The translations under genes were made by a program, and so were the position numbers. A stretch of 63,852 nt of DNA, filler included. It is 4 parts of 4 records of this genome, joined end to end, with 100 filler letters (N's around TTAATTAATTAA, not from the genome) between each part and the next. Parts side by side here need not be neighbours in the genome. Positions count along the whole stretch, not along the records: positions 34,943 to 52,333 come from DRR378314_1628; 3 more parts are not named here. One strand, 5' to 3'. Positions 1,230-52,433 of this stretch are shown piece by piece. The notes beneath the pieces are model-generated. The model was not told where the DNA came from, searched no databases, and worked only from the letters and a program-made list of their open reading frames with translations. Numbering within the stretch: the first letter of the stretch is position 1; every line of letters begins with the position of its first letter.

Positions 1230-2250
1230 TAAACAAATCCCCGTCCCGCGCGGGCTTGACCAGGCCGAAATGGCGCCAGGCGTGGTTGGTCACCTGGCGT
1301 CCCCGGGGGGTGCGCTGAATGAAGCCCTGCTGAATCAGGTAGGGCTCGACCACCTCTTCCAGGGTGCCGGCGTCCTCGTTGAGCGCGGCCGCCAGGGAAT
1401 CCAGCCCCACCGGCCCGCCGTCGAATTTGTGCATCATCATGTTGAGCAGGCGGCGGTCGGTGCCGTCCAGCCCCAGGCTGTCCACCTCCAGCATGTCCAG
1501 GGCGCTCTGCGCCACCGCGCCGGTGAGCCGGCCGTCGCCTTTCACCTGGGCGTAATCGCGCACGCGGCGCAGCAGCCGGTTGGCGATGCGCGGCGTGCCG
1601 CGGGCCCGGCGGGCCACTTCCCGGGCGCCCTCTTCATCGCCCGGGATCGCGAGGATCTCGCAGGATCGCGCTACGATACGCGCCAAATCGTCGACGTTAT
1701 AAAACTCCAGCCGCTGCACGATACCGAAGCGGTCACGCAGGGGCGCGGTGAGCAGGCCGGCGCGGGTGGTGGCGCCGACCAGGGTGAAGGGCGGCAGATC
1801 CAGCTTGATGGAGCGCGCCGCCGGCCCTTCGCCGATCATGATGTCGAGCTGGTAGTCCTCCATGGCCGGATAGAGGATCTCCTCGACCACCGGGGAAAGG
1901 CGGTGGATCTCGTCCACGAACAGCACATCGCCCTCCTCCAGGTTGGTGAGGATGGCGGCCAGATCGCCGGCCTTTTCCAGCACCGGCCCGGAGGTGGATT
2001 TCAGCTGTGAGCCCATTTCCCGGGCGATGATGTGCGCCAGAGTGGTCTTGCCGAGCCCCGGCGGGCCGAAAATCAGGGTGTGATCGAGCGCCTCGTCGCG
2101 GCCACGGGCGGCGTCGATGAAGATTTCCAGCCGCTCGCGCACTTTCGGCTGGCCGTTGTAGTCGGCCAGGCTGGCCGGGCGGATGGCCCGGTCCTGCTGC
2201 GCTTCGCCGGCGTCGGAAGGAAGCGGGGTGATCAAACGATCATTGTCCAT
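1222..2250 (-). CDS. ruvB: Holliday junction branch migration helicase RuvB
   Basis: Walker [41 protein letters not shown]. Confidence 0.98.
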
Positions 2251-2256
2251 GGCGTT

Positions 2257-2865
2257 TTACCTTGCCAGAGTTCGCAGGGCACGGCGAATCAGCTCTTCAC
2301 TGCTGGGGTCGGCGCCGGCCTCTTCGGCGGCGCGGCCCACGGCGGCGGCGGCTTCCTTATTCCGGTAGCCGAGCGATTCCAGCGCGGCGATGGCGTCGGC
2401 GCGGCCGTCCGGCGGGCCGTCCAGGGGCCGCGGCCCGGGCCGCGCGGCCGGCGCGCCTTCCAGCTTGTCGAGCCGGTCGGACATCTCGATCACCAGCCGC
2501 TCGGCGGTTTTCTTGCCGATGCCCGGCACCTTCACCAGCGAAGTGGTGTCCTGGTCGCGGATGCAGGCGGCCAGCCGGTCGGCCTCGATGCCGGAGAGGA
2601 TCGCCAGCGCCATTTTCGGCCCCACGCCGTTCACCTTGATCAGGCTGCGGAACAGCTCGCGCTCGTAGCGGCCGGTGAAGCCGTACAGCAGCTGGGCGTC
2701 CTCGCGGACCACGAAATGGGTATAGAGCGTCAGCTCGGCGCCGCTTTCCGGCAGGTCGTAGAACACCGTCATCGGCGCTTCCACTTCATAGCCGACGCCG
2801 GCCACGTCCACCAGCAGCCGGGGCGGCTGCTTTTCCAACAGGGTGCCTCGTAATTGTCCGATCAT
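2257..2865 (-). CDS. ruvA: Holliday junction branch migration protein RuvA
   Basis: MIGQLRG start, [11 protein letters not shown], HhH motifs VNGVGPK and [11 protein letters not shown]. Confidence 0.97.
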
Positions 2866-7298: not shown

Positions 7299-8543
7299 AT
7301 GAAAGTGGAATTTCACCGAGGCCGCGCGGGATGGCGCTGGCCCCTGCTGATCGTATTGTGCCTGACCAGCCTGGGACTGCAGGCCCAGAAAACCCCGGAT
7401 ATCGACCCGGCCCTGCTGATCGACGAGGAAGAGCAGGTCACCCAGGAAGAGCTGGAGATGGAGAACATCCCGGTCGATGAGCGCATCTTCATCGAGCCCT
7501 GGAACGAGGTCCCCTACAACCGCGCCTACTTCACTTACACCGACGCCGAAATCCGCGAAAAATGGGACTACCTGATGCGCGGCCTGCGCATGCCCTACCC
7601 GTCCGCGGACTACCTGCGCCGGCAATTTGAAAAGTACCCCTTCCTGCGCGACGGCCTGGAGGATTTCGACGGCGACTTCCAGAAGCTGGAAGGCCGCTAC
7701 GTCAACGTCTGGCGCCACTTCTTCGCCGGCAACTTCCAGACCGCCCGCCGCCTGGGCCTGGAACTGGGCCCCATCGGCGAGATCCCGGCGCTGTTCTCGC
7801 AGCTGCTTTACGCCATCTATCTGGCCGACCGGCAAAGCGTCAAATACATGATGCTGCAGGACATGGCCAACCGCACCGAGCGCTACTTCGACCTGATGGA
7901 GCCCGCCGAGGACGACCCGGAAATGGAGCCGGTGGTGGCCGTGGTGCGCCTCGGTTACGCCTACGCCATCGCCCGCATCGCCGAGGAATCGCCGGTGCCG
8001 ATCATTGTCGCCCGCCGCTATATCAGCAAGATCAAGAACAACGCGGAACGGGTCCTGGAGATCATGCCCGACCACCCGCTCGGCCACGCCTTCCTGGCCG
8101 GCGTGGACGCCGGCATCATGCGCCGGGTGGGCAAATTCACCGGCCGCATGACCTACGGCGCGCGCACCACCACGGTCCAGGACTCCTTCGACGAGGCGCT
8201 GACGCTGGCCCCGGACATTCCCATCGTCCACTACGAGTACGCCAACGCGCTGATCTACATGAACCGCAAGCGGGACCTCAACGAGGCGATCAGCCACCTG
8301 GAGACCGCCATGCAGCTCAAGCCGCAGTTCTCCATGGACGCGCTGGATGTGATGTACTCTTACCAGCGGCTGCGCGAAGTGCGCCTGTACGCGCTCAACT
8401 TCCGCAGCTTCCGGCTGTTCGAGAAGGCCCGGCGCACCTTCAGCAAGCACACCGACCGCAACCTGACCAGCGTGATCTCCGGGCCCCTGACCACCGACAT
8501 GCTGGAAAACCCGGACGACTACGTACTGCCCGAGCGGCAATAG
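7299..8543 (+). CDS. Exported hypothetical protein, helical/TPR-like
   Basis: 414-aa ORF with GC3-rich codons; signal-peptide-like WPLLIVLCLTSLGLQA; TPR-like FDEALTLAPDIPIVHYEYANAL. Confidence 0.75.
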   Translation: MKVEFHRGRAGWRWPLLIVLCLTSLGLQAQKTPDIDPALLIDEEEQVTQEELEMENIPVDERIFIEPWNEVPYNRAYFTYTDAEIREKWDYLMRGLRMPYPSADYLRRQFEKYPFLRDGLEDFDGDFQKLEGRYVNVWRHFFAGNFQTARRLGLELGPIGEIPALFSQLLYAIYLADRQSVKYMMLQDMANRTERYFDLMEPAEDDPEMEPVVAVVRLGYAYAIARIAEESPVPIIVARRYISKIKNNAERVLEIMPDHPLGHAFLAGVDAGIMRRVGKFTGRMTYGARTTTVQDSFDEALTLAPDIPIVHYEYANALIYMNRKRDLNEAISHLETAMQLKPQFSMDALDVMYSYQRLREVRLYALNFRSFRLFEKARRTFSKHTDRNLTSVISGPLTTDMLENPDDYVLPERQ

Positions 8544-8563
8544 CCGCCACAACAAGGAGCCCC

Positions 8564-9184
8564 ATGCGCTGGTACCAGGACCGTCTGTTTCCGAAACTGC
8601 TGGACTGGGCCACCCGTCCGCTTTATCGCGACCGCCAGCGCCTGCTGCAAGGCGCCCGCGGCCGCGTGCTGGAGCTGGGCATCGGCACCGGCGCCAATCT
8701 CGCCCTCTACGGCGACGCCGTCAGCGAGATCCACGGCCTGGAGCCGGAGGCGGCGATGCTGGCGCTGGCCCGCCGCCACGCGCGGGAAGCCGGCGTCCGC
8801 CAACCGCTGCACCTGCTGCAGGGCGACGCCCGCCGGCTGCCCTACCCGGACGGCCACTTCGACACCGTGGTCGCCTGCCTGGTGTTCTGCACCATTCCAG
8901 AGCCCGAGCTGGCCGCCCGCGAAATGCACCGGGTGCTGGCCCCGGGCGGGCGTCTTCTGTTGCTGGAACACATCGCCAGCGGTCGCCCACGCACCTTCCG
9001 CTGGCAACGGCGGGTGGACCCGCTCTGGCATCATCTGGCCTGCGGCTGTCATCTCACCCGCCCCACCCCGGATACCCTGCGCGACGCCGGCTTCGACCTC
9101 AGCGACACGCGGGTTTTCCGGCACCGCAAACTGCCCGGGCTGATGGCCGAGCTGCTGCAAGGCAGCGCCCGGCGCGCCGACTGA
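8564..9184 (+). CDS. Class I SAM-dependent methyltransferase
   Basis: VLELGIGTG motif I, GDARRLPYPDGHFDTVV, RVLAPGG; AGGAG RBS. Confidence 0.9.
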   Translation: MRWYQDRLFPKLLDWATRPLYRDRQRLLQGARGRVLELGIGTGANLALYGDAVSEIHGLEPEAAMLALARRHAREAGVRQPLHLLQGDARRLPYPDGHFDTVVACLVFCTIPEPELAAREMHRVLAPGGRLLLLEHIASGRPRTFRWQRRVDPLWHHLACGCHLTRPTPDTLRDAGFDLSDTRVFRHRKLPGLMAELLQGSARRAD

Positions 9185-9242
9185 CCGGCGCGGCAAAACG
9201 CCACCTGCCGTTCCCCGCCCACCGGGGGTACAATCCGCGCCC

Positions 9243-10427
9243 ATGAACTCAACCCTGCAACGCGTCTGGCGCCGCCGGCTGATCGGCCTGCGCAGCCTGC
9301 TGGTACTGTGCCTGGCGCTGGCCCTGCTGGTGCTGCAGCAAATCGCGCGCGCCCCCGCCAGCCTGGAGCCGCTGCTGTGGCTGGCGGCGCTGCTGCTGCC
9401 CAACCTGATCGCCCTGGCCAGCCTCAATACCCGCCGGCAGCAGCGCCTGCTGGCCCTGGAACTGACCCTGGACGTGGTGATCTTCGTCGGCCTGCTGCAG
9501 CAACTGGGCGGCGCCGGTAACCCGTTGTCGTTCTATCTGCTGGTGCCGCTGCTGCTCGGCGCCCTGACCCTGGGGCGCGGCGCCGCGCTCTGGCTGCTGG
9601 TGGTGACGCTGGGTGGATACCTGCTCGCCACCCTGTGGCACAGCGCCCCGCCGGCGCATTCCACCCTGCACGCCCTGACCCGGGAGCTGAGCCACACCCA
9701 CGGTCTCGGCATGGGCGTGGTCTTTGTCGCCCTGGCGCTGTTGCTGACCGCCCTGGGCCAGGTGATCCAGAGCCTGGCCCGCCAGCAACAGCGTCAGCAC
9801 GACCGGCTGCTGGAGCTGGCCGGCCGCCGTGAACGGCTCTACCAGGTGGCGGCGACCCTGGCCCATCAGGCCCACGAACTGAACACGCCGCTCAGCAGCC
9901 TGGTAATGCTGGCCGACAACGCCGCCCGGGAACCGGGCCTGCCGCAAAGCACCCGCGACGATCTGGCGCAGATCGAGGCCCTGGCCCGGCGTGTCGCCGC
10001 CAGGCTGCGCAACGCGGACGCGGACAGCCTGCCGGAGCGGCCCGCCTACCGGACGCTGATGGGACGGGTGCGGGATCATCTGCGCCACCTGCACCCGACG
10101 CTGGCCCTGTCGGTGAGCGGCCCCGAAGGGCAGTGTTTCAATGACGGCGCGGCCTGGTTCCGGGTGCTGGCCAATCTCGGTTACAACGCCATCGACGCCG
10201 GCGCGGAACGCCTCGACGTGCGCCTGGCGGCGCTGCCCGGCGGCCGCTGGCTGCTGCAGGTGAGCGACGACGGCCCCGACCACCCGGAACGCCGCGCGGA
10301 AGAGGGCCTGGGCGTGGGCCTGGCGCTGGTGGAAAGCACCTTGGCGGCACTGGGCGCGACTCTGACCCTGCGTTTCGAGCGCCAGTGGAGCCAGGCGCGC
10401 ATCGAATGGAGCGAGCATGACGCCTGA
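9243..10427 (+). CDS. RegB/PrrB-like membrane sensor histidine kinase
   Basis: Multiple TM helices, GGAGNPL (RegB GGxxNPF-like), H-box AHELNTPL, N-box NAIDA, DDGP, GLGVGL. Confidence 0.85.
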   Translation: MNSTLQRVWRRRLIGLRSLLVLCLALALLVLQQIARAPASLEPLLWLAALLLPNLIALASLNTRRQQRLLALELTLDVVIFVGLLQQLGGAGNPLSFYLLVPLLLGALTLGRGAALWLLVVTLGGYLLATLWHSAPPAHSTLHALTRELSHTHGLGMGVVFVALALLLTALGQVIQSLARQQQRQHDRLLELAGRRERLYQVAATLAHQAHELNTPLSSLVMLADNAAREPGLPQSTRDDLAQIEALARRVAARLRNADADSLPERPAYRTLMGRVRDHLRHLHPTLALSVSGPEGQCFNDGAAWFRVLANLGYNAIDAGAERLDVRLAALPGGRWLLQVSDDGPDHPERRAEEGLGVGLALVESTLAALGATLTLRFERQWSQARIEWSEHDA

Positions 10428-10968
10428 ATCCCTGCTGCTGCTTGAAGACGACGCCCTGCTCGCCGAGCAGACCCGGCGCGCATTCGCCCGCCACGGCATC
10501 GAGGTGCACCATGCCGCCGATCTGCAACAGGCGCACGCGCTGCTGGCCAGGCTCGCCACCCTGGACGCGGCGGTGCTCGACCAGAATCTCGGCAACGACA
10601 ACGGCCTGGATCTGATCCAGCCGCTGCTGGCGCGCTTCCCGCACTGCCGGGTGCTGGTGCTGACCGGCTACGGCAGCATCCCGGCGGCGGTGGCCGCCAC
10701 CCGGCGCGGCGCCCACAATTACCTCACCAAACCGGCCAGCGCCGGCGAAATCCTCGACGCCCTGGGCCGCGACCCCGCCGACACCGGCGATCTCCCCGAA
10801 GTGCCGCCGTCCCTGCAGCGTCTGGAATGGGAGCACATCCAACGGGTTCTTGACGCCCACGACGGCAATATATCCAGAGCGGCGGAGGCCCTCGGCATCC
10901 ACCGCCGCACCCTGCAGCGCCGGTTGAAAAAGCGCCCCAGCCCGAGCCACTTCCAGCGCGATCGTTAA
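10417..10968 (+). CDS. RegA/PrrA/RoxR-like response regulator (REC + Fis-type HTH)
   Basis: EDD, D, LTGYGSI and YLTKP receiver residues; RLEWEHIQRVL..GNIS..A..LG.HRRTLQR signature. Confidence 0.92.
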   Translation: MTPESLLLLEDDALLAEQTRRAFARHGIEVHHAADLQQAHALLARLATLDAAVLDQNLGNDNGLDLIQPLLARFPHCRVLVLTGYGSIPAAVAATRRGAHNYLTKPASAGEILDALGRDPADTGDLPEVPPSLQRLEWEHIQRVLDAHDGNISRAAEALGIHRRTLQRRLKKRPSPSHFQRDR

Positions 10969-11052
10969 CACCGTTATTACGCGAAACACTTCCCCCGGTG
11001 CACCAGGTTGACCACAATGCGGTGTCTTATTCCAGGAATCACAAGGGCGCCG

Positions 11053-12822
11053 ATGAGCAGCCGTTACAGCCTCGCAACCCTGGCGGTCCTGGCCATCCTC
11101 ACGGCCTCGGCGATGCCTGGCCGGGTCAGCGCCGACCCGGCCCCGGAACTGACCCTGAAGACCGCCGGCGACCGGGAATGGCCGGAAGGCGTCGAGGCCA
11201 ACCTTCGCACCCTGATCGACCTGAGCCGTTACCCCTGCCGCCCCGGCCCCGGCCAGAAAGCCCTGATCCAGCGCCAGGTACGCGACAACAGCCGCGCCGC
11301 CCTGCAGGCACTGGGCTTTTACCAGCCGGTGTTAACGCCGCAATGGCGCGACGCCGATGATGAGCGCTGCTTCGCCCTCACCCTCACGGTCGACCCCGGC
11401 GAGCCCACCCGCATCAGCGCCCTGGACATCACCCTCAACGGCGACGCCGCCGGCGACCCGGCGTTCCAGCGCACCATCGACAACGCCGGCCTGGAACAGG
11501 GGCAGCGGCTGCGCCACGACCGCTACAGCCGCCTCAAGCAGTCGCTCCAGCAGTTATTGATCAACCGGGGTTACGCCGAGGGCAGCGTCACCCGCCACCG
11601 TCTGGAGGTGGACCGGGACCGCCGTGAAGCGCGGGTGGTGCTGCACGTGGACAGCGGCCCGCGCTATCGCTTCGGCGAGATCACCCTGACCGGCGACGAC
11701 CAGATCAACGAACGGCTGCGCCGCGCCTATCTGCAGTTCGACAGCGGCGAGCCGTTCAGCAACGACAAGCTGCTCGCCACCCAGCAGGCCTACCTGGGCG
11801 CCGGCTATTTCAGCGCGGTGCGGCTGGACCGCGGCGAGCCGGACGCGGACAGCCGGACCATCGATGTGAGCATCCACTTCAACCCGCGCAACGAATGGGC
11901 GCTGCTGGCCGGCGTCGGTGTCAGCACCGACACCGGCCCGCGCCTGCGGCTGGGCGTGGAGAACCGCCGCGTCAACGCCGCCGGCCACACCGCGCGGGTG
12001 GAAACCGAGCTCTCCAGCGTGCGTCAGGGCGTGGGCGCCGGCTACACCATCCCGCTGCGCGACCCGATCAACGAAAAAATCGAGCTGCGCACCCGCTATG
12101 TGAATGAAGAGACCGACACCAGCGACAGCGAGATTTTCAGTACCAGCGCCGACTACATCATCAAACTCGACTCCGACTGGGTGGCCACCACCTCGCTGGA
12201 ATACCTGCGCGAGACCTACACCGTGGCCGACCAGCTCGACCAGGTGGAGCTGGTGATCCCCGGCTTCCAGCTCAGCCGGGTGGAATACGACGACCCGATC
12301 TATCCGCGCTTCGGCTGGCGGCTGGGCGGCAAGGTCAGCGGCGCCCACAAGGCGCTGGCCTCGTCGGCGTCGTTCACCCAGTTCGACGGCTGGAGCAAGC
12401 TGATCTTTCCGCTGTTCGGCGGCCGGGTCATCACCCGCGGCGAAGTGGGCTACACCGAGGTTTCCGACGTCACCGAACTGCCCGCCTCGATCCGCTTCTT
12501 CGCCGGCGGCGACGCCAGCGTGCGCGGCTTCGCCTACGAATCCCTGGGCCCGGTGGACAACGACGGCGAAGTGATCGGCGGCCGCCACCTGCTGGTCGGC
12601 AGCCTGGAGTACGACCACCCGATCAGCGAACAGTGGAGCCTGGCGGTGTTCACCGACGCCGGTAACGCCTTCAACAATTTCGACGACTACGAAATCCGCC
12701 GCAGCGCCGGCTTCGGGGTGCGCTGGCGCTCGCCGCTGGGCCCGATCCGCGTGGACTTCGCGCGCGGCATCGAAGAAGGCCGGCAATGGCGGCTGCACCT
12801 GAGCATGGGGCCGGACCTGTGA
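11053..12822 (+). CDS. tamA: Autotransporter assembly outer-membrane protein TamA (Omp85)
   Basis: POTRA-like DSGPRYRFG, RFFAGGDASVRGF, GVRWRSPLGPIRVDFA, C-terminal HLSMGPDL; start uncertain (11008 or 11053). Confidence 0.92.
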   Translation: MSSRYSLATLAVLAILTASAMPGRVSADPAPELTLKTAGDREWPEGVEANLRTLIDLSRYPCRPGPGQKALIQRQVRDNSRAALQALGFYQPVLTPQWRDADDERCFALTLTVDPGEPTRISALDITLNGDAAGDPAFQRTIDNAGLEQGQRLRHDRYSRLKQSLQQLLINRGYAEGSVTRHRLEVDRDRREARVVLHVDSGPRYRFGEITLTGDDQINERLRRAYLQFDSGEPFSNDKLLATQQAYLGAGYFSAVRLDRGEPDADSRTIDVSIHFNPRNEWALLAGVGVSTDTGPRLRLGVENRRVNAAGHTARVETELSSVRQGVGAGYTIPLRDPINEKIELRTRYVNEETDTSDSEIFSTSADYIIKLDSDWVATTSLEYLRETYTVADQLDQVELVIPGFQLSRVEYDDPIYPRFGWRLGGKVSGAHKALASSASFTQFDGWSKLIFPLFGGRVITRGEVGYTEVSDVTELPASIRFFAGGDASVRGFAYESLGPVDNDGEVIGGRHLLVGSLEYDHPISEQWSLAVFTDAGNAFNNFDDYEIRRSAGFGVRWRSPLGPIRVDFARGIEEGRQWRLHLSMGPDL

Positions 12823-18763: not shown

Positions 18764-18863
18764 NNNNNNNNNNNNNNNNNNNNNNNNNNNNNNNNNNNNN
18801 NNNNNNNTTAATTAATTAANNNNNNNNNNNNNNNNNNNNNNNNNNNNNNNNNNNNNNNNNNNN
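18764..18863. other. Artificial contig spacer
   Basis: N run containing TTAATTAATTAA (stops in all six frames). Confidence 0.98.
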
Positions 18864-25100: not shown

Positions 25101-28100
25101 GACGACCGCACGCTGGTGCCTGCAGTCTGTAGCAGCTGGGGTTTGTGATGCTTACCTTGCCACCGCCGTCTTGCTCCGTCGCATCTCTCCACGACCCTCG
25201 AGTTGAGACAGCAACCTGATTTCCAGGAATACGCAAGTGGGCTGGGAGCGGCTTTTCCTGTACGTCGGCGGCGGATGATGCGTGCGCGACGGTAGGGGAC
25301 CGGACGCCCGCATGGCGGAGTGCAACAAACCGTTCATCCCCAGAGTCATCTTCGCTGTCACCCTCTTCGTCAACTTGGATCGCATACGCGGAAATACTGC
25401 CACTTGGATCGTGACGATTTGTCATACGGGTAGCAGCCGACTGCTGCTGCCCAGTGACATTCTCGCGTTGCACAACGGCTGTAGCAGTCGGAACGCGAGT
25501 GTCTGCAACTTGGTCACTCGAGGATTCCTCTGCAGTTTCCCACCCACGTCGATTGGACACTGCATCTCTACTTTGCGCACCCGGAGTGGTATTTTCTGCA
25601 GACTCTCCGCCTCCTTGGCTCGCTGCAGCGTCTTCGTTGGTAGACTCACGCGTCTCGCCTAGTTCGCGATTGGCGAGGTCATTCTCCGAGGTCCGTTGCC
25701 ACTTGGTGTCAACAGCGAGTGCGCCCCCAGCGCGAGCTCCGTGAGGCGGTTGCGCCAGCATTACATTTTGAGAAGTCGACGGTGCTACATCCACGTCTTC
25801 ATCGCTGTCGGTGGGAGGCGGGGGAGGTGGTGAGCTGGAAGTCGCCGCGTTGCCAACGTCGCCTCCTTCTTCGACCCACGAAACTTCGCACGCATCGTTG
25901 CCCTCCAGCTTCGCCATATCGGCCATCTCCGCGCCATCTAAGCTTTCTTCGTCACTGAGTCGAGCAGGCGACGGTGGATCCATGAGACTGCTTTCCTGGT
26001 GTGAATTGGACTGTTCTTCCGTTGTCGAAGACAAGCTATACTTTCGATTCCAAACCACCTCGCTCCCGCGGCGAAGCACTTCGTCGTAGTCTTCCGTTGG
26101 CGGCGCCGTTGGAAGGCTGCGCAGGGACGAAAGCCTCGGCAATGATCCACTTGCTTTATCTACGTGTGGATCATATGCTTCACGTACATCTTCACTCTTG
26201 ATGCCGCGATGCAGTGATTCGGGGACTTCGTGAGCCGTCATGGCAAAACCGCTGACGTCGTTCGCTCCGTGCTCAACTGACGGGCCTGTCGCCAAAGGCG
26301 CACTTTGCGCTCCAACCTTGGTGGACACAGCGCGATCGCCAGACAAGCGATGGATGCTTACATGGCTACGACCTGTACTGAGCGAACCAGAAATATCATT
26401 CTCTGCTGGAGTATTGTGTGGCGCCGTAACTTCCTCAGCAGGGACACTTTGCGGGCGCGCACCCGTGCTATCTGTGCTGCCCACATCACCAGCAACCACA
26501 CGCTCACTGCCGGAGTCGCCGGCAGCCGCCGACGCTTGGGTGCGTTCGTCGCTCAGCGCTTCATCTTCTTCGCGAATTATCTGCGTAGCCAGCGTTCTCT
26601 GCACTTTATCTGAAGCATCTGGCGTGAACGTGTCTTCGGGCGAGCACCCACTGCTAGAAACAGAGACATCTGCTTCCGTCTGTCGCCATGACATGTGCGC
26701 GGCCGTTCCATCGCCGGGAGGTGTGGCAGCGTACGCCAGTGCATCGTCTTCATCGTCACCACCTGTCTCGACCCCGCCATACGCAGAAGTCAAGACCCCG
26801 CGAAGCGATGGATTCGCCGATACAGCGCGAGAAGATGTCGGAGGCGAGATCTCAACACTTTCTGTCGAAACGCTCGATGCTGCAACACCACCGTCCGGAC
26901 CCGGTAGACCGCCAGCGTCCACAGAGTAGTACCGACCTACCTGACCTGCGTAGCGTCCGACCGCCACATTGCAAAAGCAAACAGATCGCAGGGCGAAGCA
27001 CATTCATGGAAAGAAAGTACGGTGAGTGCATTCGCACACAGTGTAACGGAGCTTGCATTTCGTAGAACTAACCCTACACGGTAGATTGCGATGCAATTCA
27101 TGCGCCGCGCCTACGTTTGGGGAGACGAACGACAATAATAATAACCAAAATTTCATCATAGGTTGGCCGTGTCTGCGCACCGGAAACAGTGATTTTCGCG
27201 GAACGTTACAGGTTATATGGCGCACAGCGAATATGCCCACTACACGCAAAACATGATCCAAGGACCAAATTCACTTGCACACCAAGATCGCCTGGCGTGA
27301 ATATTTGGCAGTCGAACGCACCGTGCTCCACGCGCACGCTGCCGACAAGAGTACTTTGCGAGTTGCTGGCAAACGACGGGAGAGTCGATAAACTATTGCT
27401 CCTCCTTACAATTGCGTCGCTACCTCGAAAAGTGGAAGGCGATCGATTCGTGGGGGTGAGATGATCGTCGAACAGTGCCTTTCCTTTTGGCCGCCGGAGG
27501 AAGCGAGCGGCGGCAGCTGCGTTTGCGTAGGAAGGCTCAGACACAACGGATCCATAGTCCGCGGTGGCTACGTCGGACCCCATGGCGTGGAGCAAGGCCT
27601 CTATCCACTCGTGCCTTTCTTCGTTGGTTGAAGCCGCCAATATATAGGTACGCGCAGGTGACCGCAACGCAAAGGCAAACCCAGCGTCGGTGAAGCCATC
27701 AGCAGGGGCGACATTGGAAAAGGACGACACGTTGAGCGCGTTGAGCGGGACAGGGTCTCCCATCCGTCGATAGTAAGCCAACTTTGTGCCGTCGAGACTG
27801 AAAAAACGAAACTTCCAGCTCTTGACATTCTGACCGCGCTTTCGCAAGTAGCCTTCGCGCCGCCCTTGTCCCAGCAAAATAGCGCGACGTTCCTCGCGGC
27901 TTGGCCGCTGAAACTCCGACTGCCGGGTGTCGGAAGCGGCGAGAAACCCCTCGATCGCGTCGATCCACGATTCGCGTTCGTCTTCGGAAGTCGCAGCCAG
28001 AACAAATGTACGCAGCCCCGGGGCGGATATCGAAAACGCAAATCCCTTCTCGGCATATTCGCCAAGGGGAGCGACAGCTTTATATGTCCCGAGGTCGATT

Positions 28101-34842: not shown

Positions 34843-34942
34843 NNNNNNNNNNNNNNNNNNNNNNNNNNNNNNNNNNNNNNNNNNNNTTAATTAATTAANN
34901 NNNNNNNNNNNNNNNNNNNNNNNNNNNNNNNNNNNNNNNNNN
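34843..34942. other. Artificial contig spacer
   Basis: N run containing TTAATTAATTAA. Confidence 0.98.
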
Positions 34943-46434: not shown

Positions 46435-46452
46435 GTTTACGTTAAGGTAAAC
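46435..46452. promoter_or_regulatory. LiuR (MerR family) operator upstream of the bkd operon
   Basis: GTTTACGTTAAGGTAAAC, 17/18 match to the palindrome GTTTACGTTAACGTAAAC. Confidence 0.85.
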
Positions 46453-46565
46453 TTTAGCCGTTGATGAGTGCCACACCAGGTGCCGTCAGACTGGCTATAC
46501 TTACAATACCGACGCCCTCACAAGGGGCGTTTTGTTCCTCAAGCCACTACCCCAGGAAGAGGATT

Positions 46566-47750
46566 ATGACAACAACAAAGTCCAAAGTTGTTTATAACCC
46601 GGTTTTTACCGACGGTGCGGAATTCCGTATTCCTACCTTCAAGTTACTCAAGCAGGACGGCTCTCTCTACAAGGGCGCCAAAGCGCCGAAGCTCGATAAA
46701 GAGAAGGCCCTGCGCATCTACCGGGCAATGGTCACCACCCGGATTCTCGATGAGCGCATGCTTGCCGCCCAGCGCCAGGGGCGCCTGAGTTTCTACATGC
46801 AGTGTACCGGCGAGGAAGCCGCCGTGATCGGCAGCACCGCCGCGCTGGATGACGGCGACATGATCATGGCGCAATACCGGGAACAGGGTTCTCTGGTCTA
46901 TCGCGGCTTCACCATCGATGAGTTCATGAACCAGCTGTTCGGCAACGAACTGGACTACGGCAAGGGGCGACAGATGCCCGTGCACTATGGCTCCAAAAAG
47001 CTGAACTACATGACCATTTCCTCCCCGCTGGCCACGCAGATTCCCCAGGCCACCGGCTATGCCTACGGCCAGAAAATGGCGGGCGACGGCCACTGCACCA
47101 TTACCTACTTTGGCGAAGGCGCCGCCTCGGAAGGCGACTTCCACGCCGCCCTGAACATGGCGGCCGTTCATCGCGTGCCGGTGATTTTCCTCTGCCGCAA
47201 CAACGGCTATGCCATCTCCACGCCGGCCGCCGAGCAGTTTGCCGCCGATGGCGTTGCACCCCGGGCCTACGGCTACAAGATGGACGTGATCCGGGTGGAT
47301 GGCAACGACATCCTGGCCATGCACGAAGCTACCCTGGCCGCACGTAGCCTGGCGGTGGAGCACAATCGCCCGGTGCTGATCGAAGCCATGAGCTATCGAC
47401 TGGCCGCACACTCTTCGTCCGACGATCCTTCCGGCTATCGCAGCAAAGACGAAGAAGCCGTGTGGCGTGAGAAAGATCCGATCCTGCGCATGCGCCTGTG
47501 GCTCGAACGCAAGAAATGGTGGAGTGAAGACGACGAAAAACAGCTGCAGGAAAACATGCGCCGCGAAGTGCTCGAAACCATGAAACGGGCGCAAAAACGG
47601 CCACCACCGGCACTCGATACCTTGGTCAGCGACGTCTACGACGAGGTGCCGCCTGCCCTCGCCCAACAGTTCGACAAACTCAAGGCGCACATTCGCCGGC
47701 ACCCGGAGGCCTATCCGAAGAGTGCAGAACACGCCAAGGGAGGTGCGTGA
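46566..47750 (+). CDS. bkdA1: Branched-chain 2-oxoacid dehydrogenase E1 alpha
   Basis: [24 protein letters not shown] motif [23 protein letters not shown]; start chosen by the AGAGGA RBS. Confidence 0.93.
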
Positions 47751-47751
47751 G

Positions 47752-48729
47752 ATGACCCAGATGAATATGCTCCAGGCCATCAACAACGCCCTCGACACCG
47801 CCATGGCCGCCAACGAGCGGGTGCTGTGTTTCGGTGAGGACGTGGGCGTGTTCGGCGGCGTTTTCCGGGCCACCAGCAACCTGCAGGAGAAGTACGGCAA
47901 AGCCCGCTGTTTCAACACACCGCTGGTGGAACAGGGCATCATCGGCTTTGCCAACGGCCTGGCGGCGCAAGGCTCTGTCCCCGTGGCCGAGATCCAGTTT
48001 GCCGACTACATCTTCCCGGCCTTCGACCAGATCGTGAACGAGTCGGCCAAGTTCCGCTACCGCTCCGGCGACCTGTTCAACGTGGGCGGGCTGACCATTC
48101 GGGCGCCCTACGGTGGCGGTATCGCCGGCGGCCTTTACCACTCGCAATCACCGGAAGCCTACTTTGCCCACACTCCGGGCCTGAAGATAGTAGTGCCGCG
48201 CAATCCGCACCAGGCCAAGGGCCTGCTGCTGGGGGCCATCCACGACCCCAACCCGACCCTGTTCTTTGAACCCAAGCGGCTCTACCGCGCCTCGGTGGGC
48301 GACGTACCGGATGAAGATTACCGGCTGCCGTTGGGCGAAGCCGAAGTGATCAAGGAAGGCACGGACATCACCGTGCTCGGCTGGGGCGCGCAGATGGAAG
48401 TAATCGAACACGCCGTCGAGGCGGCGGAGAAAGACGGCATTTCCTGTGAAGTGATTGACCTGAGAACCATCCTGCCGTGGGACGTGGAAACCGTGGCCAA
48501 GTCGGTGCTCAAGACCGGGCGCCTGGTGGTTACCCACGAAGCCCCTCTGACCGGCGGTTTCGCCGGTGAAATCGCGGCGACCATTCAGGAACGTTGCTTC
48601 CTGTACCTGGAGTCCCCGATCGCACGGGTGACCGGGATGGATACCCCCTTCCCGCTGGTGCTGGAAAAAGAGCACCTGCCCAATCACCTGAAGGTCCATG
48701 AGGCCATCAGGGCGAGCGTGGAATTCTAG
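47752..48729 (+). CDS. bkdA2: Branched-chain 2-oxoacid dehydrogenase E1 beta
   Basis: [43 protein letters not shown]. Confidence 0.94.
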
Positions 48730-48755
48730 GTTGATATCAGGACAGGAGAGCAATC

Positions 48756-50345
48756 ATGAGTGATTTTATACTGCCCGATATCGGCGAAGGTATCGTGGAG
48801 TGCGAACTGGTCAAATGGCTGGTGAGCGAAGGGGACATCATTGAAGAGGATCAGCCGGTCGCCGAAGTGATGACCGACAAGGCGCTGGTGGAAATTCCAG
48901 CACCTTATAAAGGCCGCGTAACCCGCCTGTACCACAAGGAAGGCGACATCGCGAAAGTGCATGCCCCGCTGTTCGAACTGGTGGAAGAAGGCGCGGAAAG
49001 TGAACAGGATTCTGCACCTAAACCCAAGGCCGACGACGACAAAGAAGCGAGCGAAGCGCCAGCAACGCAGACTGCAGGCGGAACCCAGGAGTCTTCCGGC
49101 GACGATGCAACCGAGGACTTTATCCTGCCCGACATCGGCGAAGGCATCGTTGAGTGTGAAGTGGTGGAGTGGCGCGTGGCCGAGGGCGACGAGATCGAAG
49201 AAGACCAGCCCGTGGTGGACGTGATGACCGACAAGGCGATGGTGGAAATCACCGCGCCCAAGGCTGGCCGAGTCACCAAACTCTATCATCAGCAACAGGA
49301 AATGGCCCGGGTACACTCGCCGCTGTTTGCGTTCGTTCCCCGCGAGCGTGACGAGCCTGCAATGGCTAAAGCGGAATCCAAGGCGGCACCGGAACCCACG
49401 CCGACAACCTCCAAACCGGTCTCAACCGGCAACCGGCAGAGGATTCCCGCCAGCCCGGCCGTGCGGCGCCTGGTGAGAGAGCACGACCTGAACCTGGCGG
49501 ACGTCGCCGGTTCCGGCAAGGATGGCCGGGTGTTGAAGGCCGATGTGCTGGCTCATCTTGAACAGCCCGCTGGACAGAAAGCCAGTGAGTCACAACCCAC
49601 GACCGCTGGGACAAGCCGCAGGACACCGGAACGCGAACAGGAAGTGCGCATCGAGCCGATACGGGGCATGAAAGCCGCCATGGCCCGCAGCATGGTCACC
49701 TCGACGACCACCATTCCCCACTTCATCTACAGTGAGGACATTGACGTCACCGACCTGCTGAAACTGCGGGAACAGCTCAAACCGGACGCCGAAGCCAGTG
49801 GCTCGAGGCTCACGCTTATGCCCTTCTTCATGAAGGCCATGGCCCTGGCGGTGCAGGAATACCCGGTGCTCAACAGCCGCCTCAACGACGACGTCACCGA
49901 GATCCACTACCTGTCGCAGTGCAACATTGGTATGGCAGTGGACAGCAAGGCCGGCTTGATCGTCCCTAACGTCAAGGGTGTGGAAAGCCTCACACTGCTG
50001 GGCATTGCCGATGAAGTGGCGCGCCTGACCGAATCCGCCCGTTCGGGCCGGGTCAGCCAGGAAGACCTCAAAGGCGGCACCATCACCATTTCCAACATTG
50101 GCGCCCTGGGCGGCACCTACGCCGCGCCCATCATCAACCCGCCGGAAGTGGCCATCGTGGCACTGGGCCGCACCCAGAAGCTGCCGCGCTTCGACGCCAA
50201 CGGCCAGGTGGTGGAACGGGCGATCATGACGGTGAGCTGGGCGGGAGATCATCGCATCATCGATGGCGGCACCATCGCGCGCTTCTGCAACCGCTGGAAA
50301 GGCTACCTGGAATCGCCGCAGTCGATGCTGCTGCATATGGGCTGA
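48756..50345 (+). CDS. bkdB: Dihydrolipoamide acyltransferase E2 with two lipoyl domains
   Basis: Two FILPDIGEGIVECE...VMTDKA repeats; ASPAVRR E3-binding domain; DHRIIDG. Confidence 0.94.
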   Translation: MSDFILPDIGEGIVECELVKWLVSEGDIIEEDQPVAEVMTDKALVEIPAPYKGRVTRLYHKEGDIAKVHAPLFELVEEGAESEQDSAPKPKADDDKEASEAPATQTAGGTQESSGDDATEDFILPDIGEGIVECEVVEWRVAEGDEIEEDQPVVDVMTDKAMVEITAPKAGRVTKLYHQQQEMARVHSPLFAFVPRERDEPAMAKAESKAAPEPTPTTSKPVSTGNRQRIPASPAVRRLVREHDLNLADVAGSGKDGRVLKADVLAHLEQPAGQKASESQPTTAGTSRRTPEREQEVRIEPIRGMKAAMARSMVTSTTTIPHFIYSEDIDVTDLLKLREQLKPDAEASGSRLTLMPFFMKAMALAVQEYPVLNSRLNDDVTEIHYLSQCNIGMAVDSKAGLIVPNVKGVESLTLLGIADEVARLTESARSGRVSQEDLKGGTITISNIGALGGTYAAPIINPPEVAIVALGRTQKLPRFDANGQVVERAIMTVSWAGDHRIIDGGTIARFCNRWKGYLESPQSMLLHMG

Positions 50346-50354
50346 CGGGGCATC

Positions 50355-52199
50355 ATGGCGCAGAAGACGCAACTGCAGCAGTTCTACATACCGGAAGAGC
50401 AGTCGATCTACCTGCTCAGCCATGACGATGCCAAGAAGCTCAAGGACTGGGTGGCGCTCTGCACCACCCAGCTCCGCCAGCTGGGCTACCACGACATTGA
50501 ACTGATCGGCAAAGGCGCCTACGGATTCGTGTTCGCGGGCCGCCTGCCGCACCAGAACGGCAGCGGCCCGGAACACGTCTTCAAATTCACCCGCATCAAC
50601 CTGCCCCAACACCTTCAGGACCGGCTGGAAGATGAAGCCTTCATCCTCGAACAGGTCCGACACCCCCGGGTGCCCCGGCTGATCGCCTATCAACGGGCAC
50701 ACAACCAGCCCATCCTGGTGATGGAACGGGCAGTGGGCCTGAATCTGGAAGAAGTGTCCCTGCGCGAAGGCCGCCTGAAACCCAGGCTGGTGATGCGAAT
50801 CGCCGACCAGATTGCCGATATCCTCCGCAACCTGAGGCGCGAGAACGGCCCCGCCGGACGCCCCATCGTGCACGGTGACATCAAACCCTCGAACCTGGTG
50901 TTCGACGCCAGCACCGAAAACATCGCCCTGATCGACTGGGGCTCATCGGTGTTCGCCCAACTGGACGCCAACCAGCAGTTCATCACCGCCAACGTGATGG
51001 AACTGATGTCCGACAACCTGCAGCAGACCAACGCCCGGCTGGGGGACGTCTACTTTATCGGTGACGAACAGCTCAACGGTGGCCTGTCGTCACCCCGGTT
51101 TGATGAACAGGGTGCTGCGGGCACGCTCTATGCGCTGGCATCGGGCCAGTCCTGCCGGTTTGGCCACCAGGCCATTCCCGCAGCATCCCTCGGGCTGCCC
51201 ATGGAATTCGCCCGCATGCTCGACGGCATGCTCTCCCCTGACCCGGACACGCGTCGCAAAGCCGGTGACTACTACCTGAACGAAATGCCGCGGATGGCAC
51301 GCACGGTGATGGTCGATCTGGCAGAGCCACCACTGGCCCCCATGGTGCCGGTCTGGACCCGCCCCTCAGACCATGAAATCGACACCGTGGTGTACAGTTC
51401 CCGCAAATCCTTCCTGCGCCAGGAAGGTGCGCCAGAAACCCTCAACGATGTGAATGATGTACAGCTGGACCGCTACTACAAGAACTTCATGCAGGGCATG
51501 GGGGAAACGGAAAAAGCCTTCCTGGCCGCCGTCAGCCGGCTGGGGCGGTACCCGGTGGAAGGGGGCCTCGCCGTGCGCTGGGAAACCGACGGCGTCTACA
51601 TCGACACCTCACTGAATCTGCACGACCCGAACCTGAAAGGGGCCTTCATCCGGGCCGTCAACAACATGGTGTACCTGGCCCAGGCCATCTACCGCCAGGG
51701 CATCTTCAAGAGCTGCCTGTTCAACGCCCGCAACACCCTGCACATCGACCGCGCGGACCCGGATCAGCCCTTCGTGATCGAGCCCGGCATGCAACTGAAA
51801 TACGAAGTCAGCGCCGCGCCGGAAGTGGAAGACGAATCCCGGGTGCACTCCTACTTCGAAGACGGCCCCGACCCGGAAGAATTCCTGGTGCTGCCGCAGA
51901 CCATCATCACCGCACTGGAGTCCCTCAACGACATCCACCACACCGGGATGATTATCTTCGAAGCGCTGCCCCGCCACCTCAAGATCCACAGCCACTACCG
52001 GCTTCTGGACCCGGACCGGGAGAGCGAATTCAGCAGGCTGTTGGCCGAGATCCTGTCCTCGATCGACCAGATCACCGGCCTTGGCGTCTCCGGCTTTATG
52101 AAAATGCCCTACAAGGACACCCGCTTCTTCCCTCATATCGAGCGGCTACCGGAGCGCTACTACCCTAAAAACCCGAGGGCAAAGGACCTCCCAAGCTGA
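50355..52199 (+). CDS. Hanks-type Ser/Thr protein kinase with an unrecognised C-terminal region
   Basis: Gly loop IGKGAYGFV, VFK lysine, LEDE alphaC, LVME hinge, VHGDIKPSN catalytic loop, DWG; no TM segment seen. Confidence 0.88.
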   Translation: MAQKTQLQQFYIPEEQSIYLLSHDDAKKLKDWVALCTTQLRQLGYHDIELIGKGAYGFVFAGRLPHQNGSGPEHVFKFTRINLPQHLQDRLEDEAFILEQVRHPRVPRLIAYQRAHNQPILVMERAVGLNLEEVSLREGRLKPRLVMRIADQIADILRNLRRENGPAGRPIVHGDIKPSNLVFDASTENIALIDWGSSVFAQLDANQQFITANVMELMSDNLQQTNARLGDVYFIGDEQLNGGLSSPRFDEQGAAGTLYALASGQSCRFGHQAIPAASLGLPMEFARMLDGMLSPDPDTRRKAGDYYLNEMPRMARTVMVDLAEPPLAPMVPVWTRPSDHEIDTVVYSSRKSFLRQEGAPETLNDVNDVQLDRYYKNFMQGMGETEKAFLAAVSRLGRYPVEGGLAVRWETDGVYIDTSLNLHDPNLKGAFIRAVNNMVYLAQAIYRQGIFKSCLFNARNTLHIDRADPDQPFVIEPGMQLKYEVSAAPEVEDESRVHSYFEDGPDPEEFLVLPQTIITALESLNDIHHTGMIIFEALPRHLKIHSHYRLLDPDRESEFSRLLAEILSSIDQITGLGVSGFMKMPYKDTRFFPHIERLPERYYPKNPRAKDLPS

Positions 52200-52300: not shown

Positions 52301-52333
<33 letters not shown>

Positions 52334-52433
52334 NNNNNNNNNNNNNNNNNNNNNNNNNNNNNNNNNNNNNNNNNNNNTTAATTAATTAANNNNNNNNNNN
52401 NNNNNNNNNNNNNNNNNNNNNNNNNNNNNNNNN
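52334..52433. other. Artificial contig spacer
   Basis: N run containing TTAATTAATTAA. Confidence 0.98.

Follow-up and report, generated by a model that had tools for sequence, protein, structure and literature searches.

This analysis concerned a four-gene operon in a window of 63,852 nucleotides (the whole stretch of DNA that was analysed), in which the three genes of a branched-chain 2-oxoacid dehydrogenase (BCKDH) of the mitochondrial type, bkdA1, bkdA2 and bkdB, are followed by a gene for a Hanks-type kinase. Comparison with related genomes strongly supports a functional tie between this kinase and one lineage of BCKDH, a conclusion that comes near the limit of what comparative genomics can deliver. 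Because the kinase is the conserved fourth gene of a mitochondria-like bkd operon, Marinobacter and its relatives may switch BCKDH by phosphorylation, a control also found in animals but exerted there by an unrelated kinase. An even chance is given here to the reading that the kinase is dedicated to BCKDH and regulates it by acting on the active-site loop of E1 alpha; its substrate and target site, an inhibitory effect and the function of its C-terminal half are what we infer from the comparisons below. Open reading frame (ORF) and domain scans placed the four genes in one direction, as follows.

46563..47750, plus strand: bkdA1, BCKDH E1 alpha of 395 aa, mitochondrial type (Pfam E1_dh, 8.6e-96)
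47752..48729, plus strand: bkdA2, BCKDH E1 beta of 325 aa, starting at ATG 47752 (Pfam Transket_pyr and Transketolase_C)
48756..50345, plus strand: bkdB, E2 (Biotin_lipoyl in two stretches, E3_binding, 2-oxoacid_dh)
50355..52199, plus strand: soluble kinase-like protein of 614 aa, P0001 (Pfam, alignment, model and hydropathy)

The gaps between them are 1 nt (bkdA1-bkdA2), 26 nt (bkdA2-bkdB) and 9 nt (bkdB-kinase). An initial annotation of the window had given the same order and gaps, and had seen neither a terminator nor room for a promoter at the bkdB-kinase junction; both statements agree with the ORF and domain calls and with simple scans of the junction, in which no promoter-like or terminator-like site was found.

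The strongest argument for a functional tie is that the co-occurrence of kinase and BCKDH survives the unlinking of their genes. An even sample of 301 genomes was taken from the order, with the E2 type defined by at least 53% identity and E <=1e-99. The kinase was present in 26 of these genomes, at 54-94% identity, and the E2 type in 29; every one of the 26 kinase genomes had the E2 type, and the kinase was found in none of the 272 genomes that lacked it. Kinase and E2 genes were adjacent in 25 of the 26 and 10.8 kb apart in the other (G627). At class level, where 400 genomes were scored, three carried the kinase; these same three had an E1 alpha with 59% identity or more, and elsewhere the identity of E1 alpha did not exceed 43%. 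The phylum sample of 401 genomes held 18 with the E1 alpha type, and the kinase was present in all 18. Ten genomes were new in that sample: the kinase was adjacent in two, about 1-1.5 kb beyond E2 in four, on a different contig in two (G799, G1049) and 1.7-2 Mb away in two (G972, G999).

Gene neighbourhoods were counted in the best 80 of 433 genome stretches encoding a relative of the kinase, including loci from Marinobacter, Litchfieldella, Halomonas, Billgrantia, Allohahella and a metagenome-assembled genome of the Oleiphilaceae. The E2 gene lay directly upstream of the kinase in all 80, with the order E1 alpha, E1 beta, E2, kinase wherever the DNA was long enough to show it. Neighbours across genera had been set beforehand as the test on which the proposal of a BCKDH kinase should stand or fall, and it came through, the kinase being next to bkd in several genera. 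From the E2 stop to the kinase start the distance was -1 to 13 nt in 74 loci, 21 nt in two and 67 nt in two; two of the 80 computed gaps reflect an artefactual start. The flanks differ widely (SDR, CYTH, MerR-liu genes, TRAP transporter, serine dehydratase, methyltransferase, VgrG) while the four genes stay constant, and so these behave as one module. Within it the kinase is more conserved than E2 (81% versus 70% identity in the Litchfieldella locus L055), and, judged from its sequences, the kinase family is under strong purifying selection. In one genome (G188, locus L087) bkdB and the kinase are separated by a 513-aa ORF on the opposite strand (7357-8898 of the locus, plus strand) that matches no Pfam family, and the gaps of about 1-1.5 kb after bkdB in G993, G716, G1031 and G1052 may hold an ORF like it.

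The enzyme encoded by the first three genes was identified from its closest solved chains. For E1 alpha this was human BCKDHA (394 bits, against 236 for Thermus and 212 for P. putida), and for E1 beta human BCKDHB (458 bits, against 346 and 314), so that for both subunits the match to the human protein scores well above those to pyruvate dehydrogenase or P. putida BCKDH. The bkdB product has two lipoyl domains, an E3/E1-binding domain and a catalytic acyltransferase core, the last matching a solved BCKDH E2 core (entry 2ihw, 249 bits). A heterotetramer-type E1 together with a BCKDH-like E2 identifies the operon, at the level of homology, as one for a branched-chain 2-oxoacid dehydrogenase. The setting likewise points to branched-chain amino-acid catabolism, with a LiuR-type box before the operon, leucine dehydrogenase (ldh) in relatives, and a leucine-catabolism cluster at locus L045 of Marinobacter sp. 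QJJ-212, where the order is ldh, bkdA1A2B-kinase, liuR, liuA (acyl-CoA dehydrogenase) and liuB (carboxyltransferase). The flanking parts of that cluster lie at 1400-2500 (minus strand) and 9006-12393 (plus strand) of the locus. The number of lipoyl domains varies: E2 has two in the window and in many Marinobacter, and one in other kinase-bearing lineages, whose E2 is about 420-440 aa long (for example loci L046, L054, L059, L088 and L112).

Three parts can be told apart in the kinase protein.

50382..50420, plus strand: invariant N-terminal motif FYIPEEQSxYLLS, residues 10-22 (invariant columns; pLDDT about 46-51)
50487..51299, plus strand: Hanks-type (ePK) kinase domain, residues about 45-315, non-RD, with HGD (Pfam Pkinase, Foldseek, invariant residues)
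51321..52196, plus strand: orphan C-terminal domain, residues 323-614 (model pLDDT 78; invariant polar residues)

Pfam Pkinase matched residues 45-206 with an E-value of 3.4e-17, and PK_Tyr_Ser-Thr and APH were matched as well. The catalytic motifs are GKGAYG (52-57), K77, E94, HGDIKPSN (173-180) and DWG (194-196). Across 23 family members, down to 38% identity, G52, G54, K77, E94, H173-G-D175, K177, N180 and D194-W-G196 are invariant, and G57 of the glycine-rich loop is at least 90% conserved. By alignment, then, the protein possesses the glycine-rich loop, the K77/E94 pair, HxDxKxxN and DFG (as DWG) that mark a Hanks-type kinase; with HGD rather than HRD it is non-RD, and non-RD kinases are usually independent of activation-loop phosphorylation. 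No membrane segment is expected, since the highest Kyte-Doolittle mean over 19 residues is just 1.05. The 614-aa soluble kinase with intact motifs described in the initial annotation is thus borne out by alignment and hydropathy. An AlphaFold model of the whole protein had a pLDDT (per-residue confidence) of 73 and a pTM (overall fold confidence) of 0.79, and Foldseek paired it, at an E-value near 3e-9 and with a TM score on the target of up to 0.72, with PknB, PknA, PknE, Rad53, Nek, MEK and further protein kinases in alignments of 280-300 columns. As these columns take in the C-lobe, the domain is predicted to have a complete bilobal ePK fold.

The C-terminal domain was modelled (pLDDT 78) as two tandem helix-strand-strand-helix-strand-strand units. 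Its searches were unproductive: Pfam on 30 members, with E up to 1, gave scattered chance matches only, the best Foldseek match in the PDB had an E-value of 0.14, the best VIA-align score against 48,161 chains (Z 4.0) was under the noise level stated for the tool, and the ESM Atlas gave no usable match. This half of about 290 residues therefore matches no family or fold searched, which does not by itself prove a new fold. The polar residues E502, D503, G504, D506, E536 and K543 are invariant in it, even in a distant homologue from Halomonas cupida (P0139) that is 33% identical over residues 272-608 of the query. Their retention there suggests that the domain holds a binding or catalytic site and is not a spacer. 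The Halomonas cupida protein, of 515 aa, is a homologue of the C-terminal domain on its own, with no kinase domain and no Pfam match. Residues 10-22, at the other end of the kinase, are invariant and yet modelled as disordered, which suggests a docking peptide. A complex prediction with E2 residues 1-290 and the full kinase reached 0.30 against a mark of 0.34, was run without controls, and counts neither way.

The family is a tight one. Among 1.84 billion representatives searched, 30 scored below 1e-30, the rest being generic matches to the kinase domain, and just two of the 30 were full-length, at 75% and 41% identity. A word-index search returned 1966 proteins, mostly annotated as "protein kinase family protein" of Marinobacter and Halomonadaceae, and no NCBIfam model reached its cut-off on the kinase protein.

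The proposed target lies in E1 alpha.

47409..47444, plus strand: equivalent of the phosphorylation loop, H283-S284...Y292-R293-S294 (alignment to human BCKDHA)

This loop, which the initial annotation had pointed out, is present at residues 281-294 and aligns with HS...YRS of human BCKDHA; S284 and S294 are taken here to correspond to human Ser292 and Ser302 (human numbering). Position 284 is Ser in all 97 loci examined from kinase-bearing genomes, which are not independent and include a few duplicates of one place. At position 294, 92 of them have Ser and five have Thr. Three kinase-less genomes with the same BCKDH type have Gly, Gly and Thr at 294, and the seven distant gammaproteobacterial BCKDH E1 alphas all have Pro, Asp or Ala. 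That Ser or Thr at this position appears to track the presence of the kinase is a lead, not proof, for targeting of the loop.

The mechanism would then be as follows. The kinase would be transcribed from the LiuR-controlled bkd promoter, and its translation is probably coupled to that of bkdB, at a low level, given the 9-nt spacer and a weak Shine-Dalgarno sequence, GGGG. Its Hanks-type domain would phosphorylate the active-site loop of E1 alpha (H283-S284...Y-R-S294), and phosphate on the equivalents of S284 and S294 would shut off decarboxylation. The C-terminal domain and the N-terminal peptide may dock the kinase on the BCKDH complex or, alternatively, may serve as a sensor for a metabolite, for instance a branched-chain keto acid or an acyl-CoA.

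Several observations weigh against such a switch. S284 is conserved with or without a kinase, being present in nearly all kinase-less E1 alphas (a distant one, at L106, has Thr), and so is uninformative, while the correlation at position 294 depends on perhaps two independent losses, as G556 and G624 look related. Three of the 29 order-sample genomes with this BCKDH type have no kinase: G556 and G624 possess E1 alpha, E1 beta, E2 and leucine dehydrogenase, and G646 the three bkd genes alone; a search of all three with the orphan domain by itself found nothing. The kinase is unlinked or separated in G188, G627, G972, G999 and the metagenome loci L113/L114. In these last two a kinase of 55% identity is flanked by earP-efp on one side and SIMPL-GAF-proQ-prc on the other, bkd genes being absent from the 6 kb around it, and they are the only loci from a metagenome search aimed at the most divergent member, P0124 (41% identity). 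Such unlinked genes indicate that in some lineages the kinase can be expressed from a separate promoter, and its co-transcription with bkd, as read from gene positions, is not universal. A counteracting phosphatase did not emerge: PP2C_2 (PF13672) was found in only three of five kinase-bearing genomes, there beside other Hanks kinases, and no phosphatase stands beside the operon in the scanned loci, the search having been confined to the PP2C family. Within the kinase itself, the Pkinase profile is covered over just the first 153 of its 263 positions, and the long activation segment (197-247) has low model confidence (pLDDT <50).

These points leave room for other explanations. The kinase may be linked to BCKDH and act on something else, whether E2, E1 beta, leucine dehydrogenase, LiuR or another protein, or may activate the enzyme, so coupling BCKDH flux to a signal sensed by the C-terminal domain. 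Co-occurrence and adjacency fit any BCKDH-linked target equally, as does a Ser284 that is kept irrespective of the kinase; moreover, the operon adjoins ldh and liuR-liu in some loci, such as L045, and ldh takes the fourth position in kinase-less relatives. What makes this version doubtful, while still deserving consideration, is that position 294 is Ser or Thr in every examined locus of kinase-bearing genomes, and that the kinase tracks the E1/E2 type and not ldh or liuR, whose positions vary. A different extension keeps the E1 alpha loop as target and, by analogy with AceK, sees in the protein a bifunctional kinase/phosphatase or a ligand-gated kinase with a C-terminal domain of new fold. With its EDGxD loop, Glu and Lys, all of them invariant, that domain would then act as the phosphatase or as a sensor of branched-chain keto acids or acyl-CoAs. 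This is regarded as unlikely.

Two further possibilities detach the kinase from BCKDH as a protein substrate. It is very unlikely that the kinase phosphorylates a metabolite or cofactor of the pathway, with the C-terminal domain binding the ligand, in the manner of the aminoglycoside, choline and fructosamine kinases of the same superfamily. Pfam APH does match the catalytic loop (1.8e-6), ABC1 and RIO1 match as well in P0124 (41% identical), the profile match ends after DFG, and the usual APE motif is unrecognisable; against these stand the higher score of Pkinase over APH, the invariant glycine-rich loop, K77/E94 and HGDIKPSN with the Lys typical of Ser/Thr kinases, and best fold matches that are protein kinases (PknB, PknA, Rad53, Nek, MEK) over 280-300 columns. 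Most improbable is a passenger gene with no relation to bkd, such as a kinase of stress response or phage defence that came to lie downstream of bkdB by chance. The best NCBIfam and PADLOC matches are indeed to defence kinases (MAD6 at 47.6 bits, where the cut-off is 460, and PD-T4-6 at 73 bits), and the two metagenome loci have the gene amid housekeeping genes, efp and proQ. These defence matches, however, cover the generic kinase domain only and fall far under the cut-offs, for which a defence-system assignment was rejected; the module is constant while its flanks vary, co-occurrence with one BCKDH lineage holds even when the genes are unlinked, and 81% identity between Marinobacter and Halomonadaceae is atypical of defence genes. 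A dedicated BCKDH kinase acting on the E1 alpha loop is thus the reading preferred here.

The leader of the operon carries two candidate control elements.

46436..46451, plus strand: LiuR-type operator palindrome TTTACGTTAAGGTAAA (sole window match to TTTACN6GTAAA with at most one mismatch)
46511..46541, plus strand: conserved leader hairpin with loop CACAA, followed by a U-run and UUCCUC (terminator-like site; covariation)

A LiuR box at this place had been part of the initial annotation, and the window match and the related loci uphold it. The one match in the window compares with 0.24 expected, at least one match occurring in 20 of 100 shuffles, and in 72 of 79 related loci the 260 nt upstream of E1 alpha include a LiuR-type box with at most two mismatches. 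Genome G001 has four TTTACN6GTAAA sites. Three precede branched-chain catabolic genes, namely bkd, a MerR-acyl-CoA dehydrogenase operon and a gene for an AMP-binding acyl-CoA synthetase, and the fourth lies at an unrelated place. In its passages on LiuR, a published regulon reconstruction has bkd among the LiuR targets and mentions no kinase (PMC3223726). The supplement of another has bkdA2/bkdB as LiuR targets in 25 genomes of three groups and places no kinase under LiuR (PMC5343134, supplement 1). The hairpin, a possible attenuator or translational control element, has eight pairs, five of them with compensatory changes among 38 sequences, and the UUCCUC that follows it is complementary to the Shine-Dalgarno sequence AGGAAGAGGA of bkdA1. 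No Rfam family matched the hairpin, and it could not be recognised in the more distantly related loci L087, L088 and L109-L112. The start of bkdA1 was placed at the ATG preceded by this strong and conserved Shine-Dalgarno sequence, and its stop is the TGA at 47748-47750; a longer ORF from TTG 46461 was judged unlikely by comparison.

Downstream of the operon the contig soon ends.

52302..52333, plus strand: 5' part of a tRNA gene cut at the contig end (sequence; compare locus L001)
52334..52433, no strand: artificial contig junction, an N-run with the linker TTAATTAATTAA at 52378-52389 (sequence)

The operon contig stops at 52333 within the tRNA gene, 134 nt past the kinase stop, and in locus L001 (96% identical) a tRNA-Arg(CCG) gene lies about 200 nt 3' of the kinase. 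The TTAATTAATTAA linker occurs within N-runs also at 18808-18819 and 34887-34898, the window consisting of contigs joined artificially. For this reason the GNAT, Nfu and MFS genes beyond the junction are not true neighbours of the operon, and they recur downstream in no related locus. The initial annotation had also stated that there is no E3 gene, which holds for the slot right after bkdB and cannot be carried further downstream, the contig ending just past the kinase. Where the Pseudomonas and Bacillus operons have a dedicated lpdV-type E3, the kinase comes after bkdB here, and the flanks of nine scanned loci contained no E3-like (pyridine-nucleotide disulphide oxidoreductase) family. In two kinase-less genomes leucine dehydrogenase is the fourth operon gene (L109, 4334-5410, minus strand; L111, 5778-6854, minus strand). 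In Marinobacter similis A3d10 (L023; G001 C1:488126-489309) bkdA1 is split in two frames and bkdA2 looks truncated, with bkdB and the kinase intact; the damage to E1 could be sequencing error or decay. Elsewhere in the window, a PH domain of eukaryote type (PF00169, 1.2e-15) is matched by a 223-aa ORF at 27206-27877 (minus strand), within a region (about 16-34 kb) where several ORFs lack any Pfam family.

Covalent on/off control of BCKDH is textbook mitochondrial biology, and bacterial BCKDHs are described as controlled by transcription and product inhibition. No description of a Hanks-type kinase in a bacterial bkd operon was found in full-text literature searches, subscription journals being outside their coverage. 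If the kinase does control BCKDH, it would be a clear case of convergent regulatory evolution, a kinase of unrelated fold having settled on the bacterial BCKDH lineage most like the mitochondrial enzyme. It would also make phospho-control of 2-oxoacid dehydrogenases accessible in a simple genetic system, and several hundred proteins of one tight family, their second half without a match to any known family or fold, would gain a function. Should the AceK-like version be true, bacteria would have arrived independently at the circuit that BCKDK and PPM1K form in animals. Wax esters, branched lipids and polyhydroxyalkanoates are produced with Marinobacter and Halomonas, and a BCKDH switch could matter for the supply of branched-chain acyl-CoA in production strains.

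Among the closest known systems are mitochondrial BCKDK and the PDKs, which have a GHKL/histidine-kinase-like fold and are dedicated to 2-oxoacid dehydrogenase complexes. The window kinase would be dedicated in the same way, the proposed target loop retains both serines, and the E1 subunits are nearest to the human ones. It differs from them in its ePK fold, neither HATPase_c (the Bergerat ATP-binding fold) nor BCDHK_Adom3 being among its Pfam matches and the fold search giving ePK kinases, and, in the case of BCKDK, in that a PP2C search found no PPM1K-like phosphatase partner. PknG of Actinobacteria controls 2-oxoglutarate dehydrogenase via OdhI/GarA, so that both kinases would be Hanks-type regulators of a bacterial 2-oxoacid dehydrogenase complex. 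However, control by PknG is indirect, through an FHA-domain inhibitor, and the gene for PknG lies outside the dehydrogenase operon; the kinase loci examined showed no FHA gene, and the accessory domains of PknG are unrelated to the orphan domain of the window kinase. With PknB-type kinases the protein has fold and catalytic motifs in common, but it is soluble, with no PASTA domain or membrane segment, and is set apart by HGD, DWG, a long and unusual activation segment and a unique C-terminal domain of 290 residues.

AceK, the isocitrate dehydrogenase kinase/phosphatase of the aceBAK operon, has an ePK-like core and targets an active-site serine. Both proteins have such a core, and in both cases the gene closes a catabolic operon. 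AceK unites kinase and phosphatase in a single polypeptide, and the same arrangement here would explain the missing phosphatase. Its domain order and extra domain are unlike those of the window kinase, and the AceK family was absent from the Pfam matches (E up to 0.001) and the NCBIfam matches (E up to 0.01). On these family assignments the window kinase belongs to neither the BCKDK/PDK nor the AceK family, and any likeness to them is functional and convergent.

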